Assembly: GCA_039621445.1 (NCBI GenBank)
Contig: CP154954.1
Location: 33,705,455-33,760,651 of the forward strand
Origin: Euglena gracilis
Lineage: Eukaryota
DNA: 55,197 nucleotides
Reading direction: 5' to 3'
How positions within the stretch are numbered: the stretch's first letter is position 1; the number at the start of each line of letters is the position of its first letter. The notes under the pieces were generated by a model. The model was not told the DNA's origin and ran no database searches. It was given only the letters and a program-made list of their open reading frames with translations. Of the stretch, positions 1 through 51,300 are shown one piece after another. Both the position numbers and the translations under genes were made by a program.

Positions 1-3000
1 GGCCGGTGCCCGATCCCAAGCCCAGTCCCCAGCCCGCGGCCCCCAGCAGCAGCAGTCCCCCACAGCGCGGTCCACCCTGCAGGAGCGGACGACCAAGTTC
101 ACCCTGCTGCCCTTCCCGCCGCCGCGGAAGGAGAAGTGAGACCACAGGGGGGTGCACTCCTCTTCAGACTCCCAGCCCAATGCAACATTGCGCATGCGCG
201 CATTCTTCTACTCACAGTGTATTGATTGCGCACATGCGCATTGTTTTCCCATGCACACCCCTCTCTTCCCCAGAGGCAATTCCCTCCCATTCTGTCAACC
301 CCTCTCGCATGCACAGTCGACATAGCCGCCGGTGGGTACACACGGTGCACACAGCGTCCGGGCCAAAAGAATGCGCACATGCGAATTCATCCCCTCTCCT
401 GAATCATGCATGCCTTTTGGATTTGGTTTACCGCTCAGTGCACGCACACCGGCCAGCAGCACACACCCCAAGCGTACACTTAGGCGGCCCACTGGACCAG
501 GGTGGCACACCCGAGGCCACTCGGGGGTTCACCCCTGGGAGGTGGACCAGGTGCGGGCACACCCCTCCCTCTCCCCATGGAAGAGACACAAAGGCCAAGG
601 GGAGTGCACCTACCAGCGCGTCCAGCGCTGCGCCGGGGCCGGCAGCGGCGGGGCGTCGGGCGGCGCAGGCGTGCGGCCAGAGGGCCGCAGTGTGTGCAGG
701 GCACGGCGTGCCTCGGAGATCCCCTGTGGGGCCATGGGACCCTGTCACACCCCTCCGTCAACCCTATACCCCCGGCGAACCATATCCACGCCGCTCCAAC
801 CGTGTGTCGGACCGCCCATCCCTCTCTATACCCCTGGCACTCTCCCTCTCCCTCCCCCCTATATCGGACCAAGGACCAAAGGACAGCGAGGGAAGGTGAG
901 GGATGGGACCGGCAAGGGAGGGAAGGGCGTCTCCAGCCAAAGGCCCCTGCTTTGCCTCCAAATCAAAATAAAGGCTGGGGAGGGGGGAGGGGGGTGAATG
1001 CGCACCTGCGCAATACCGAGGCCACCGGGGAATGGGGAAAGCCGGCGGGTACCGTACCTCCACCGGACGAGGGTGCCGCCTCGAAACACAGCGTTTCGTG
1101 TCGCACCGCCTTCGCTTGACGAGGTGTTTCCCCCGGCCGGCGGAGGTCAAAAACAGGTCTCCTCAAGGTCAAAAAAGTCGGATTCCTCAAAAAAATCCTC
1201 GGACACCGGAAGTCGTGGTACACCTTTGTTCTCGATCACCTCGGCTTGTCGGGTCGGCCGCCCCGTCGGGTGGTAGTGACTCACTCGGTCAAAAAAGAAT
1301 GCGCAGGTGCGCAAACTTAGGCAAAAAGTGAAAAGTGCATTCCCGGCCGTCTAAATTCTTACGCCTGTTGGGGGAGCCACTCCCTGAAATGTTGAATTTT
1401 CACATATTTTCTTTAAATAAAAGGTTGGCCATAATTTATTTCCCGTGATTCCACCCCCGTAATTTCTGTCTCCCATACCCCCCTGGGCCGATCAATCAAA
1501 AATCCAAAAATAAGACCCCCCTTGACGGCGCGAAGCGCCGGGGACAGGCTTCTTTTTAAGTCACCTGACCCCCCCCCCGGGGGGAGGGGGGGTGGGTGGG
1601 TGGGTCCGGGCCGGACCCCCCCCCCGGGGGGGGGGGTCCCGCGCCGGAGGCGCTGGGTATACCTTTTCGGTGCGAAGCGCCGAAAACTTTTGAAAATTGC
1701 CTTTAACGGGCCCGATTGTGAGGGGGGGGGCCCTGGCCCCCCCCCCCGGGGGGGGGACCCGCGTCAACCTGGCCTGGGGGGGGGGGGGAACCCCCCTCCC
1801 CCCCCGGGGGTCTTAAAAAGAAGCCTGGCCGGGGACAGTGAATATTTTCCCTCAAAAATTACCAAAAACCCCAATTTCATACACAAAAATGATGAAATTT
1901 CAGAAATTTTCAGATTTTTGAAGTGCAAAAAACATGATAAATATCAATTTACACCAATTTACACATGGCGCGAAGCGCCGAAGGAAAAATTGCAGTGCTC
2001 GTGGGAAACTGAAAAATGGTGTTTTTTTGGGTTCGGGTCGGTCAAGAAAAAAGTCCGAAAAGAAAATCCCCCCAAAAATAAGACCCCCCTTGAGGACTTC
2101 CAGCAACGGACCCAAAAATAAGACCCGGGTCTTATTTTTGGGGGGTTTATTGTTTGTCGGTTCTTCGAGGTCGCCCCAACTTCTGGGAGGGGGGAAACGG
2201 GGGGGGGGCAGGGTTGGATGGGAAGCCTTGAGGGGGGGGGGTCGGACCCCTCCCGACACGAAAGGGGTGGGGTCGGACCCCCCCCTCCTACCTCGAAACT
2301 GAGGGGGGGGGGGGCGAAAATTTTTCGATTTCATGGACGGGCAAAGGGCCAGAAATCGGGTCGAAAACGGTCAAAAATCCCTGATTTTTCTTTGAAAAGC
2401 GATCCAAAAATGCTCATTTTTTGAAATTTTTTGAACATTTTTTGGGGGAAAACACCAACACATCAAAAAATCGGCAATATGGCCAAAAGTCAGCAAAAGG
2501 GGTGTTTCTGCTCATTTTCCGGCGCTGTGCGCCGGAAGAAAATTTTCTGCTATTTTTGGCACCTGTGAAGGAGGGGGGGGGTGGTCCGGACCCCCACCTT
2601 ACCCCCCCCCCCAGGGGGGGGGTCGGGACCCCCCCCCTACCACCTACCTCAATACCGAAGGGTTTCCCATCCAACCCTGGGGGGGGGTGGACTATATTCT
2701 ATTAAGACTATTAAAGTGTATCCGACCCCACCCGGGGGAGGTAACTGCCTGGTTTTTTTTCCAGGTGACTGACTGATTGTGGCTTCGGACCCCCTTGGGA
2801 GAAATGGCTGAAATGGTTGAATGTGGCCCCCCGGAGCCAAAGAAGAAGCGGCCAAAATCTTTTGATTTTGAGCCGTTTTGGCCAGACGTAGGGGGGGGGG
2901 GAACTGGAACTGGACCCATTAGAACGGGTGTAACTCGGGTGAGTGCAAATTAATCATCAATGAAATTAATCAATTTTTTGGGGGGTCTTTTGGTGAGCCT

Positions 3001-48300: not shown

Positions 48301-51300
48301 CGAACGTCATCCACCACACAAACACTTATTTATCATATACTGAGTGTCGACGCTCCAGCACTGAAAACAACACCACCCCTGGCCGCTGTGAAGACCAAGG
48401 AAAGCACATATGCACACACTTTCTGCACACACCCCATCCGCAATGGCTGCAGTCAAACATGGCACATCGGGATGAGTGCGCACGTGAACCCTTCTTGTGT
48501 CTCCCCTTAAAGCACCCTGGTAGGAGGTTGCCACCAGGGGTTTTTTTTAAGACCGGGGGAGGGGGGGGTCCCCCCACCCACCCCTGGGGGGCCCCCCCGG
48601 GGGTCCCGGGGGACCCACAAAAAAAAAGGCCGAAAAATTGCGAAAAATGCTAAAAAAAAAGCACTTTTCAAAAATTTTCGGCGCCTTCGGCGGCAAAAAG
48701 TATATCCCACCCCCCTCTGGGGGGACCCCAGGGGGGGGGGGGGCTCGGCCGGACCCACCCACCCTACGGGGGTCCACAACTGAAAAAAAAACCCTGGTTG
48801 CCACCAGGCTTGTGCTTAAGGACCCCGGGGGGGGTACTGGCTAGCCAATCGGCTAGACACTGGAAAAAATGGACTAGCTAAGACCCCCCCTCCCCAGGGT
48901 TCGATATAAGGACAGGGGGGGGGGGGGGTCCCGCCCCCCCCCCCTGGGGGCAGGGGGGGGGGGGGGTGGGGGGGGAAACCCCCCCCCCACCTAAACAGGT
49001 GCGCGGTCTGGGTTACCGAAAATTTTTGACCCCCAAAACGACCAAAAGTGCCATTTTGGGCACTTTTTGGGCAAAAATGTGCCAAAAATGCAAAAAAATT
49101 TTCGGCGCAAAGCGCCGGAGGAAAAAATTGACCATTTTTGGGGGGGGGGGGTCCCGGGAACCCCCCCCCCGAGGGTCGGTCCGGACCCCCCTGGCAGGTG
49201 GGGGGGGGTCCGGACCCCCCCTGCGAGCCAGGGGGGAGGGGGGGGTGGGGGGGGACACCCCCCCACCTAAACCATGTACGCCCTCCTTATATCAAACCCT
49301 GGCCCTCCCCCCCTGGGGGGTCCGGGGGTCCCCCCAACTGGAAAATTTTTTTTCCTCCGACGCTGCGTGCCGAGGTGGAAATGAGGTTATAGGTTTTGGG
49401 CTGGTTTTCTTCCAAAAATTCCCAAAAATGGCCAAAAACGGGCATTTTTGGCCATTTTGGGGGGTCCCAAAAAAAATTTCTGGCGCTTTGCGCCGGTCAC
49501 TGGAAAAAAAATTTCCACCAGCCAGCCCTGCTAGCAGACCCCCCCCTCCGGGGGGTCTGCTAGAAATCCCACTAGCCAAATTTGGACTAGCTGCAGTCCA
49601 GCCCCCCCCCCCCCCCCGGGGGGGGGCTGCAATCCCTTAAGCACAACCCTGGTTGCCACGCAGGGCCATGCCAAACAACTCGGCACACAAGGTGGAGGCA
49701 CAGCCCAGGAGACAGGGTCTACCGCAAAAGTGGAATTTTAACATTTTGGTTACCTCTGTGGAGGCTCCGCGGAGCCTCAAGGTAACCAGCCTCCACGGAA
49801 ACTAAGGTAACCAGCCTCTGCGGAGGCTCCAAGGGAACCAGCCTCCGCGGAGGCTAAGGTAAACAGATTTGCCAGGGCATGTTGTGAACATGGAAATGAA
49901 TGGGAATTTTTTTTTTGTGTTATAAAGAGAAACATTATTCAATGTCAAACACGGCGACTGCACTCAGTGGCAAATCATCCACTTCCGAACTTGTCAGAAC
50001 CTGTCTGTTTTCTGCCCATTTGCACAGAGGATACAAAAAATTCACGGACTTTGGGTGGCAACAATAGAGCTTAAAACGAAAAAGAAAACGAATTCATTCA
50101 GCCAGAATTACAGCAAAATTATCCAGAGGCCAGAATTGTACCCAAAATTGTGACCCTGATGGGATTTGTCTCAGCTTTTGAGCCCGGATTGCACTGGAGT
50201 GCATCGTCTACAAGGAGAACTAACAGTCACACAGGGGGAGGTGGCAAGCAAACTGCACGTCAGCACAGATGTCATGTTGCAAAAAAAAGGTCACGTGAAA
50301 TCCAAAGTGGCGTCCATTTATCTGTGCCGGGGGGAGGGGGGCAGGGGGGGGGGGGGCACCTGCGGCCCCTCCCCCCCGGACCCCCCCCTGCCCCCACCCC
50401 CCTTCCCTTCTCCCACCTACCCCCCACCCCCCCCCCTCCCCCACTTCCCAATAACAACATCCTATTATGTGGACCAGGGGTTTTCTTAAGGACCCCCCCG
50501 GGGGGGGGGCAGCCTCCGGCTGGCAAAAAGGCTGCTGGCTGGAAATGAGCTGCTGGCTGGACCCCCCCCCCGGGGGGATAGGGGGGGTCCGGGGCTGGAG
50601 CAGGCTGGGCTGGGCTGGGTCGATGAAAACCAAAATTTTCTAACACATTTTTTTGCCGTTTTCGACATTTTGCTTGATGGATCTGGATCAAGGCTGGGGG
50701 GCTGTGATGGAGGAAGCTGTAATGAGGGGAAAAATGCAGGGATAGGTGAGCTGGGCAGCCCAGTTGGCTGGCCATCCTGCGGCCGGCTGGCCCGGCCTCC
50801 GGCCGGCTGGACCCGACTTTATTTCAGTCGACCCTGGGACAGCCCAAATTTAGGCTGCTGGCTGGATTTGAGCTGCTGGCTGGCTGGCCCCCCCCCCCGA
50901 GGGATGGGGTGCCCTCCGGCTTAAGAAAACCCCTGGTGTGGACAAAATTTGGCGGACATGGCGCAAATGGCAAATGGGTAAACAATAAAGACAAAATAAG
51001 GCGGACATGTCGTTTTTGTGGGAAATGGATAAATGGTTTCGAACAAGTTTGGCGGATATGGCTTAAATGGCAAACGGGTGAACGGTCTGTGCTCATCAAC
51101 GGACATGGCGTTTTTGTGGCAAACGGGGGGGTATGGGGACGTGTGTGAGGGAAAAATAATTTTGTTTTTTGTGGGGACGTGGGCGGTGCTGGAGTCTAAA
51201 CAAAATTTAATTTGTAAAAGGATATGTGGCAAAAATAAAAAAAACGTCAGCCAGGTTTGTACAAGCTCTCCTGAGCAACATGCACCTTTTTGTTGTGGAG

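Follow-up and report, generated by a model that had tools for sequence, protein, structure and literature searches.

The window analyzed here (55,197 nt, apparently from the nuclear genome of a euglenid of the Euglena gracilis type) contains MITEs whose ends and target duplications match the geometry of the nonconventional introns in its genes. Euglenid nonconventional introns follow the code 5'-N3CDG-/-CH'GN5-6^R (the caret marks the 3' cut; Nomura et al., 2025, PMC12501133). Its rules were defined by experiment: the donor spacer is strictly 3 nt long, the acceptor spacer measures 5(-6) nt, and the first exon base is a purine. With cuts 3 nt ahead of CAG and 5 nt past CTG, what is removed is, by simple arithmetic, the element plus one TSD; the geometry proposed in an earlier sequence-only reading of this DNA (3 + 5 = 8-bp TSD) is correct and rests on that code. 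On paper, any element with CAG...CTG ends and an 8-bp TSD already has the form of a nonconventional intron, and taking it out would bring back the target sequence. Because the spacers sum to 8 and the end triplets are identical, a fresh exonic copy would present the nonconventional-splicing signal. In the literature searched, we found no paper stating this 3 + 5 = 8 link, nor concrete families for which CAG...CTG ends, 8-bp TSDs and the 3 + 5 arithmetic are brought together. The observation behind the sequence-only reading, MITEs and introns of the kind described, is confirmed, and its interpretation is partly supported.

Introns were located in two ways. Ten (in positions 35198-55197) were read from RNA-only joints, meaning joints present in runs X15, X16 and X21 and absent from DNA run X3, and exact mapping of two transcript-derived proteins, P0002 and P0003, gave 31 more. 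All 41 lie in four minus-strand genes; 24 are GT-AG and 17 nonconventional. Gene C (5141-25480), which encodes residues 1-927 of the 1849-aa protein P0003 (EukProt EG_transcript_170), has 25 introns in the window (15 GT-AG, 7 canonical nonconventional and 3 deviant nonconventional). Gene A (28775-38542) encodes the 340-aa protein P0002 (EukProt EG_transcript_12094), with a PLOD-type glycosyltransferase domain, and has 11 (5 GT-AG, 4 canonical nonconventional and 2 deviant nonconventional). Transcript B1 (43257-44551, ends approximate) has two GT-AG introns (43405-44120 and 44223-44453). Transcript B2 (45229-55197, continuing beyond the window) has one nonconventional intron (45276-45659) and two GT-AG introns (45726-46712 and 46767-54599), the second of which spans 7.8 kb and contains a cluster of MITEs.

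Twelve of the 17 nonconventional introns read N3-C(A/G)G...C(T/C)G-N5/6^purine (N3-CDG...CH'G-N5/6^R), 11 with N5 and one with N6. Two in gene A have fixed RNA joints, with no room to slide, and their cuts fall precisely at -3/+5: AGC-CAG...CTG-CAAGT^G (35778-36263) and ACC-CGG...CCG-CCCCC^G (38185-38433). The joint of GGG-CAG...CTG-GCAGT^G (45276-45659), also seen in RNA, slides by 5, and GCC-CAG...CTG-TTGCG^G (33100-33959) and ACG-CAG...CTG-GCTGT^G (30583-31727) were mapped from protein. The remaining seven are in gene C: C2, GTT-CAG...CTG-CCGCG^G (24695-24889); C13, AAA-CAG...CTG-GCGGC^G, with an 11/14 stem (14387-14759); C19, GGC-CAG...CTG-CCACT^G (9993-11293); C21, GCC-CGG...CCG-GTTCC^A (7774-8276); C22, ACC-CAG...CTG-GCTCC^A (7467-7701); C23, TGA-CAG...CTG-CCTTCA^A, the sole N6 case (7097-7299); and C25, GGC-CGG...CCG-CTTGC^G (5888-6436). 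The sequence-only reading had listed seven such introns, one with N6; the motif holds and the total was an undercount. Gene C alone has seven, the N6 case among them, in agreement with that number, whichever seven were meant. At the 5' side and again at the 3' side, 12 of 14 intron ends continue the motif to C(A/G)GG, like the MITEs, and it occurred in register in none of the GT-AG introns checked (23 of the 24).

Five nonconventional introns depart from the code, through N4 or N7 spacers, a pyrimidine as the first exon base, or CAG/CTG absent in register. C1, GCC-CAG...CTG-CGGG^G, has N4 and holds a MITE (24971-25402); CCC-CGG...CTG-CCCCG^T (33976-34902) slides by 2 and has T where the purine is expected; and the intron at 37883-38005 has a 5' N3-CAG with a 3' partner CCG followed by 7 nt. 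C11 (15057-15444) has a TGGGGCCC/GGGCCCCA stem and no CAG/CTG in register, and the 152-nt C3 (24504-24656) has a boundary ambiguous across 10 registers, none of which fits the code. In their terminal stem, acceptor-exon purine, 12 of 17 fit to the code, and occurrence in genes that also carry GT-AG introns, these are ordinary euglenid nonconventional introns; they differ only in the five deviations and are distinctive in nothing themselves.

A strict scan for MITEs (CAG...CTG ends, TIRs matching at 11/14 or better, and 8-nt flank repeats with no more than one mismatch) returned nine elements of 126-847 nt, against none in each of 20 shuffles. Relaxed criteria added three decayed copies (24994-25259, 36130-36240 and 54288-54577) for a total of 12, in at least six families by pairwise BLAST and TIR sequences, which bears out the earlier count of about a dozen CAGG...CCTG elements with 8-bp TSDs. 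All 12 start with CAGG, four of six families have a CAGG-N8-TAAG TIR, and the TSD is exactly 8 long, with 9-nt flanks matching in none of the nine strict elements. Near the start of the window are a 283-nt element with a 16-nt perfect TIR (CAGGCTTCTTTTTAAG) and TSD GCCGGGGA (8/8; 1545-1827) and a 471-nt element with TIR CAGGGTTGGATGGGAAG and flanks GGGGGGGG (8/8; 2209-2679), whose target is a G run. Two lie within GT-AG introns of gene C: a 733-nt member of the CAGGGTT(T/C)GATATAAGGA family with flanks GGGGGGGG (15613-16345, in intron 15559-17139) and a 443-nt member of the CAGGCATTTGCTTAAGG family with TSD G(T/C)CTGGAG (7/8; 23612-24054, in intron 22727-24418). Two decayed copies are nested in nonconventional introns, one of 266 nt (CAGGGGTTTTCT family, TSD 6/8; 24994-25259) in C1 and one of 111 nt (CAGGGTTTGATATA family, TSD GGTGAAGG/GGTGAGGG, 7/8, with CCTT at one mutated end; 36130-36240) in intron 35778-36263. 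The smallest strict element is intergenic (126 nt, 18-bp perfect TIR, TSD CTCGGGGT, 8/8; 42127-42252); as RNA it is predicted to form an 18-bp terminal stem beginning at CAG/CUG and leaving most of the TSD flanks unpaired (centroid structure, z -4.8).

Nested and same-site insertions are present as well. Two different elements, one of 262 nt (48535-48796) and one (CAGGCTTGTGCTTAAGG) of 847 nt (48805-49651), stand in tandem at one 8-bp target, each with TSD GTTGCCAC (8/8), and a third target copy lies at 49652-49659. The length of the second includes a nested 407-nt CAGGGTT(T/C)GATATA-family element with TSD (C/G)CCCTCCC (7/8; 48895-49301). The remaining two are a 461-nt element (CAGGGGTTTTCTTAAG, TSD (A/G)TGTGGAC, 7/8; 50475-50935) and a decayed 290-nt MITE-like element with CAGGGT(A/G)TTAA ends (TSD 6/8; 54288-54577). 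MITE-bearing bins in DNA run X3 have a depth about a thousand-fold or more above that of unique bins, and the ends of the repeat unit are confirmed at 50475 and 50935, precisely where 42 and 37 loose ends of this run start to diverge and agree little further out. All 12 MITEs are within introns or intergenic; as had been stated earlier, none in the window sits directly between two exons, and none is itself an intron.

We lean toward the view that insertions of such CAGG...CCTG elements gave rise to the nonconventional introns of euglenids as a class. The elements are short, non-autonomous TIR transposons, highly repeated across the genome, in at least six families with mostly CAGG-N8-TAAG ends and 8-bp TSDs. 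A fresh exonic copy would show the signal at which nonconventional introns are cut, with C(A/G)G starting 3 nt inside the 5' cut and its partner C(T/C)G ending 5 nt short of the 3' cut, beside a purine. Elements, introns and matching geometry are all observed in the window; from them we infer the descent and that such a copy would actually be spliced. Splicing it out would restore exactly one target copy, whichever way the element is oriented, as long as the target's sixth base is a purine on the transcribed strand. The MITEs seen here would then be the young, still mobile relatives, and the introns old copies of which just the stem and the spacing survive.

Direct comparison of the window's introns with its MITEs speaks against this descent at several points. 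It is nevertheless somewhat unlikely, in our estimate, that ordinary MITEs and ordinary euglenid introns share CAG/CTG ends and 3 + 5 = 8 without a common cause. In many eukaryotes, hAT elements normally combine CAG-ended TIRs with an 8-bp TSD, which counts toward such a coincidence. Against descent stand the many genomes with hAT ends and 8-bp TSDs but without introns of this kind, the absence of a transposase among the ORFs searched, the 5 of 17 nonconventional introns outside the code, and the position of all 12 MITEs, none of which is itself an intron. The sequence-only reading had described a continuum from MITE through an intron with a 6/8 TSD to introns with only the stem left, and had suggested scoring flank identity. 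In the TSD register, 14 nonconventional introns average 3.2/8, compared to 2.85/8 for permuted pairs, so that no excess supports the continuum, and coincidence gains accordingly. The 6/8 case (45276-45659) has a chance level of 4.4% per intron, judged from permuted pairs in register, and thus 0.6 such cases are expected among 14 introns. Similarity between 28 intron ends and 22 MITE ends likewise shows no excess, following the distribution for random 12-mers except for one marginal 9/12 match (0.17 expected). This joins the 5' end of the same intron (CAGGCATTTCCTT), beyond CAGG, to the TIR of the MITE at 23612; internally, the intron has no similarity to that family (z 0.6). No intron of the window is a recognizable MITE copy. 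Three nonconventional ones without a nested MITE (37883-38005, 38185-38433 and 45276-45659) fall in single-copy-depth bins of run X3 and are therefore not members of young high-copy families, and intron stems are G+C-rich, whereas MITE TIRs are A+T-rich after CAGG; all three points also favor coincidence.

Against coincidence, two independent features agree: the triplets are the essential pair, and the spacers add up exactly. In experiments, lengthening or shortening the donor spacer by 1 nt is not tolerated (PMC12501133), and a recently gained nonconventional intron, found in only one E. agilis strain, has eight-nucleotide direct repeats (PMC4770533). Intron C1 also argues against it, with a perfect 8-nt flanking direct repeat (GGACTGCC) that has no equal among 182 permuted pairs (the best GT-AG intron has 7); this repeat is displaced by 3 nt on the 3' side, out of register, and the N4 cut leaves four extra bases compared to clean restoration, which speaks against descent. 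C1, as well as intron 45276-45659 with its 6/8 flanks and 9/12 TIR match, may possibly be remnants of insertions.

Descent from mobile elements does not depend on the superfamily to which the MITEs belong. They are most likely hAT-type, a label drawn only from TSD length and end motif. Like non-autonomous Ac/Ds-type elements, they have 8-bp TSDs, short TIRs starting with CAGGG, sizes of 126-847 nt, many copies, nested or same-site insertions, and coding capacity not found here; they differ in that neither an autonomous partner nor a transposase was seen here. The hAT terminal consensus is YARNG, with which CAGGG agrees, and hAT elements prefer nTnnnnAn targets, a pattern present in only 3 of 11 distinct targets. 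Pfam searches of 20 long ORFs of the window found no transposase domain and, in particular, no hAT transposase or hAT dimerization domain; the earlier statement that none is encoded here agrees with this weak test, and the hAT assignment is consequently unproven. It is unlikely that another superfamily with 8-bp TSDs, such as Merlin or P-like, moved these elements, which would change the family label and leave the link to introns untouched. In E. gracilis, of the same species group, two Merlin families that make 8-bp TSDs have been reported. Merlin elements encode a DDE_Tnp_IS1595 transposase, which was not seen here, and their TIRs end in 5'-GG (PMC8101967), whereas all 12 elements here have CAGG, with CA/TG inverted and not duplicated.

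Repair of staggered double-strand breaks, which also leaves short direct repeats and was proposed by those who discovered the 8-nt repeats of the newly gained gapC intron in E. agilis (PMC4770533), is a very unlikely source of the introns with MITEs as bystanders, as it leaves unexplained both the inverted CAG...CTG pair 3 and 5 nt from the cuts and the same-ended mobile elements with 8-bp TSDs in the same genome.

A MITE origin of nonconventional introns has been proposed before (PMC3935182; PMC11282704), and the descent we favor shares that general proposal with Milanowski et al. (2014, PMC3935182; 2016, PMC4770533). When the 2014 paper appeared, euglenids had no known transposon; the 2016 paper describes direct repeats of 8 nt where an intron was newly gained and explains them by break repair. 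The paper defining the splice code leaves the origin of the introns open, and the words TSD and hAT do not occur in it (PMC12501133). Introners and other transposon-derived introns of Micromonas, Aureococcus and dinoflagellates (e.g., Amoebophrya, Polarella) embody the same idea, a TIR/TSD element that brings its own splice signals and whose removal restores the host sequence (reviewed in PMC11282704). They differ in being removed by the spliceosome, where a non-spliceosomal euglenid route would serve here, and in being known as near-identical intron families, whereas none of the introns in the window is part of a repeat family. The geometry described here gives the old idea of a transposon origin for nonconventional introns a concrete, testable form.

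Sequence-only gene finding failed because the exons are too short: genes in the window were not revealed by ORF lists, GC content by codon position, amino-acid log-odds, 3-base periodicity or a generic codon model. Rfam returned no family at the gathering threshold over the 55-kb window. Introns were mapped from spliced reads and from proteins. The reads covering 35198-55197 came from two transcriptome-like contig runs (X15 and X16), a raw RNA run (X21) and a DNA run (X3). The runs are not recorded as RNA and the RNA nature of the transcriptome-like ones is our guess; spliced joints were nevertheless seen in them and in the raw RNA run. 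Ten joints in this interval were common to all three RNA sources and absent from X3; on the minus strand six of them have GT-AG ends and the other four do not. With its exons joined, the first transcript stays open in one frame through all five joints. An exon of gene A matched a 340-aa protein with a PLOD-type glycosyltransferase domain (98% identity; source name EG_transcript_12094), and a second exon-like ORF, in gene C, matched a 1849-aa protein (EG_transcript_170). Another 31 introns were located by fitting these two proteins exactly to the window. In all, this stretch of Euglena gracilis-type euglenid DNA has four transcription units, each on the minus strand: gene C, from 25480 down to 5141 and continuing beyond the window (protein mapping); gene A, 38542-28775 (RNA joints and protein mapping); and, from RNA joints, B1 (about 44551-43257) and B2 (starting outside the window, past 55197, and reaching about 45229). 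Gene A includes a micro-exon of 18 nt (VLDCNE, 33959-33976) that sits between two nonconventional introns.

The 41 mapped introns comprise 24 of GT-AG type and 17 nonconventional ones. Removal of the latter from mRNA without GT/GC-AG ends was established by RNA joints absent from the DNA in four cases and by exact protein-to-genome mapping in 13; no DNA joint fell at an intron among the joints listed for 35198-55197 (15 of 933). The published nonconventional code, 5'-N3CDG-/-CH'GN5-6|R (PMC12501133), fits 12 of the 17 (11 with N5, one with N6), and its motif is in register in none of the 23 GT-AG introns checked. At two of the four nonconventional introns seen in RNA (35778-36263 and 38185-38433) the joint cannot slide, and both are cut exactly 3 nt before the C(A/G)G and 5 nt after the paired C(T/C)G, beside a G. 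Of the five deviant introns, two lack CAG/CTG in register and one has a pyrimidine following the cut; in the remaining two the spacer is N4 in one and N7, with an A·C mismatch, in the other. A terminal stem, with 6-11 of the first 14 positions complementary, is present in 14 introns, and in 12 of 14 the motif at each end extends to C(A/G)GG, as in the MITEs described below. The sequence-only reading had counted seven such introns, one of them with N6. This agrees with the seven in gene C, but the intron for which it reported flanks identical at 6/8 positions (45276-45659) lies in B2, and the true number is higher.

Without the stem, the bare signature lacks specificity: for a single junction in gene A it gave 200 nonconventional-type vs. 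1465 GT/GC-AG-type candidates that preserve the ORF, so calling introns by eye from nothing but the motif is unreliable. Three strong CAG...CTG stem pairs (6525-7425, 6658-7808 and 12060-13071) span mapped exons and are not introns, and the transcript rules out a candidate N6 intron near 35111-35707, using instead a GT-AG intron at 35012-35702.

Elements with matching ends are present in the same window. A strict scan (CAG...CTG ends, at least 11 of 14 inverted-repeat matches, 8-nt flanks with at most one mismatch) found nine, vs. none in each of 20 shuffles, and relaxed criteria together with alignment added three decayed copies. The resulting 12 MITEs bear out the earlier proposal of about a dozen CAGG...CCTG elements with 8-bp TSDs from at least six families (as grouped here by BLAST among copies and by TIRs; one has four copies in the window and two have two each). 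All 12 begin CAGG(G/C), perfect inverted repeats reach 18 bp, and CAGG-N8-TAAG is the TIR of four of six families. The flanks are identical at 7-8 of 8 positions in nine elements and at 6-7 of 8 in the other three. The duplication measures exactly 8 nt: flanks of nine nt match in none of the nine strict elements.

These are mobile, non-autonomous TIR elements. In the DNA run X3, 42 loose ends at 50475 and 37 at 50935 diverge exactly there into unlike sequence, and in depth the bins with MITEs exceed unique bins by a factor of about a thousand or more, although this depth does not measure copy number. A pair of unlike MITEs (48535-48796 and 48805-49651) have inserted in tandem at one 8-bp target, leaving three copies of GTTGCCAC across 48527-49659, and a third is nested in the second of the pair. 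DNA contigs of one run link 48531 to 49661 with four other letters in between; they resemble paralogues of the host repeat that carry neither insertion.

Seven of the 12 MITEs are located within GT-AG introns and two more inside nonconventional introns; of the remaining three, one is intergenic and two are found leftward of the last exon mapped for gene C. Within the window, no MITE is itself an intron. The two copies inside nonconventional introns (36130-36240 and 24994-25259) are decayed and are separated by 20-24 nt from the terminal motif of the intron that holds them. Nesting of this sort could account for the large length differences between strains reported for homologous nonconventional introns (PMC4770533). 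A family of about 210 nt, with CAGGGCTG...CAGCCCTG ends and no recognisable target duplication, has two copies (20183-20390 and 43690-43904), one of them inside a GT-AG intron, and may represent an older family of this type. A lone MITE left end, CAGGGGTTTTCTTT, occurs at 47232, with no partner end found nearby. A repeated module at 14633-16310 and 44321-44854 translates to a similar peptide in several places (e.g., ...KCHFGHF...) and is part of the interior of MITE-type repeats, not a gene. Long runs of G or of C in repeats (37559-37576, 42189-42207, 48975 and 53451-53469) draw hundreds of RNA reads with poly-G/poly-C loose ends, and an "opposite strands" joint connects two of them (37559 to 42189); loose ends and joint alike most probably stem from the library or the mapping and have no biological meaning.

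The arithmetic connecting these elements to the introns is sound: cuts 3 nt upstream of CAG and 5 nt downstream of CTG remove the element plus one TSD. If a target t1-t8 is duplicated around CAG...CTG, the donor and acceptor cuts both fall between t5 and t6, so that the ligated exons contain one intact target, with t6 as the first base of the acceptor exon. Published experiments show the donor spacer to be intolerant of a 1-nt change either way, the acceptor to prefer 5 nt, and a purine at the acceptor exon to be required (PMC12501133). When MITE 42127 (42127-42252) was folded as RNA with its flanks, an 18-bp stem started from CAG/CUG and the duplicated flanks were largely unpaired in the centroid (z -4.8); in this predicted structure the element has the architecture of a nonconventional intron. 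On paper, then, the geometry fits: element ends and TSD would supply the splice signals, and excision would restore the target. Removal at -3/+5 is predicted only where t6 on the transcribed strand is a purine, as it is for MITEs 23612, 36130, 48535, 48805 and 48895 (named by start position) but not for 15613, 50475 or 54288.

The hAT superfamily is characterized by the terminal consensus (C/T)A(G/A)NG and a target preference of nTnnnnAn. All 12 MITEs have ends of this type with short TIRs. Of the 11 distinct targets, three have both T2 and A7 (GTCTGGAG, GTTGCCAC and ATGTGGAC). We take the 8-bp duplication and the CAGGG end to fit hAT. No Pfam family, and with it no transposase domain, was found in 20 long stop-free ORFs of the window; a Tc1/mariner-like motif suspected at 3273-3602 was rejected for want of a Pfam match. 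Merlin families with 8-bp TSDs are reported in E. gracilis (PMC8101967), and that study alone was returned by our literature search for hAT in E. gracilis genome papers. Merlin TIRs, however, are described there as ending in GG, in contrast to the CAGG ends of the window's MITEs. The elements probably belong to hAT and not to another superfamily with 8-bp TSDs.

The sequence-only reading went further, describing a continuum from intact MITEs through the intron at 45276-45659 to introns with only a stem left. This is a reading of the data and not a result: flank and TIR similarity are near chance, and no intron is a copy of a MITE (0 of the window's 17 nonconventional introns). In exact TSD register, flank identity averages 3.2/8 in the 14 introns with identifiable cores vs. 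2.85/8 in permuted pairs. A score of 6/8 is reached by 4.4% of permuted pairs, so the intron at 45276-45659 is not remarkable by itself. The best matches of 28 intron ends to 22 MITE ends follow the random 12-mer distribution with one exception, the 5' end of this same intron, which matches a MITE end at 9/12 positions (0.17 such matches expected). Its interior is unrelated to the MITE family that its 5' end resembles, and global alignment of 45281-45656 to MITEs 23612, 48805 and 1545 (named by start position) gave z of 0.6, 1.6 and below 0. Chance would be unlikely to combine 6/8 flanks with a TIR-like end in one intron, at roughly 1 in 100, a post hoc figure estimated from two null rates. 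Bins of introns 37883-38005, 38185-38433 and 45276-45659 have single-copy depth in X3. Intron 35778-36263 was rejected as a MITE homologue, the similarity being that of the nested copy and not of the intron's own ends.

In one intron, the first of gene C (C1, 24971-25402), the CAG...CTG core is flanked by a direct repeat, GGACTGCC, that is perfect over 8 nt. The downstream copy starts 3 nt after CTG, in a search that allowed it to start 0-6 nt past the 3' motif. None of 182 permuted pairs gave 8/8, and the best GT-AG intron gave 7. The repeat is 3 nt out of register and an N4 acceptor cut is used, so that a single copy is not restored and GACT is kept twice in the spliced mRNA. In favour of the link, and independently of this window, Milanowski et al. 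(2016) described "eight nucleotide direct repeats" at the junctions of a nonconventional intron found in a single strain of E. agilis (gapC intron 4, strain ACOI 323), longer than those of the other introns analysed there, and put them down to break repair (PMC4770533).

Nonconventional introns make up 71.8% of the introns of E. agilis (PMC12501133). A MITE origin for nonconventional introns was proposed in 2014, at a time when no transposons were known from euglenids (PMC3935182), restated in a review of 2024 that mentions TIRs and TSD-like repeats (PMC11282704), and put forward again in 2025 for Euglena (PMC12501133) and diplonemids (PMC12621601). In the text of the 2025 code paper (PMC12501133), the words TSD and hAT and the phrase "target site duplication" are all absent. 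In searches of the full text of openly accessible papers, we found no published link of hAT-like families, an 8-bp TSD or the 3 + 5 arithmetic to these introns. What is new here is the naming of candidate source elements and an introner-type idea for a class of non-spliceosomal introns; the MITE origin itself is older. Introners differ in that many near-identical copies form introns of unrelated genes, whereas within this window 0 of 17 nonconventional introns is such a copy and intron ends resemble MITE ends at random level.

Overall, the observation is confirmed and the proposed interpretation is partly supported: the geometry holds, but the continuum is not shown in this window. We lean towards descent of the nonconventional introns, taken as a class, from elements with this geometry. 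More tentatively, and with confidence slightly short of even, euglenid nonconventional splicing may be in effect RNA-level transposon excision, its -3/+5-purine rule matched to CAG...CTG elements with 8-bp TSDs. Exonic insertions would then be erased scar-free, the majority class of Euglena introns would be their fossils and the families in this window the living source, and a copy placed with its TSD in a reporter exon would be spliced precisely. Any kinship between the cutting enzyme and a transposase is speculation.

The origin of euglenid nonconventional introns and the mechanism of their removal are questions that have stood for decades. In the literature consulted, the transposon idea has so far been generic because the source element was unnamed; the window provides candidate source families and a simple numerical argument that their insertions would do no harm. 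If true, this would be an introner-like system working without the spliceosome, and it would account for the tolerance of one lineage to massive insertion into its coding sequence.
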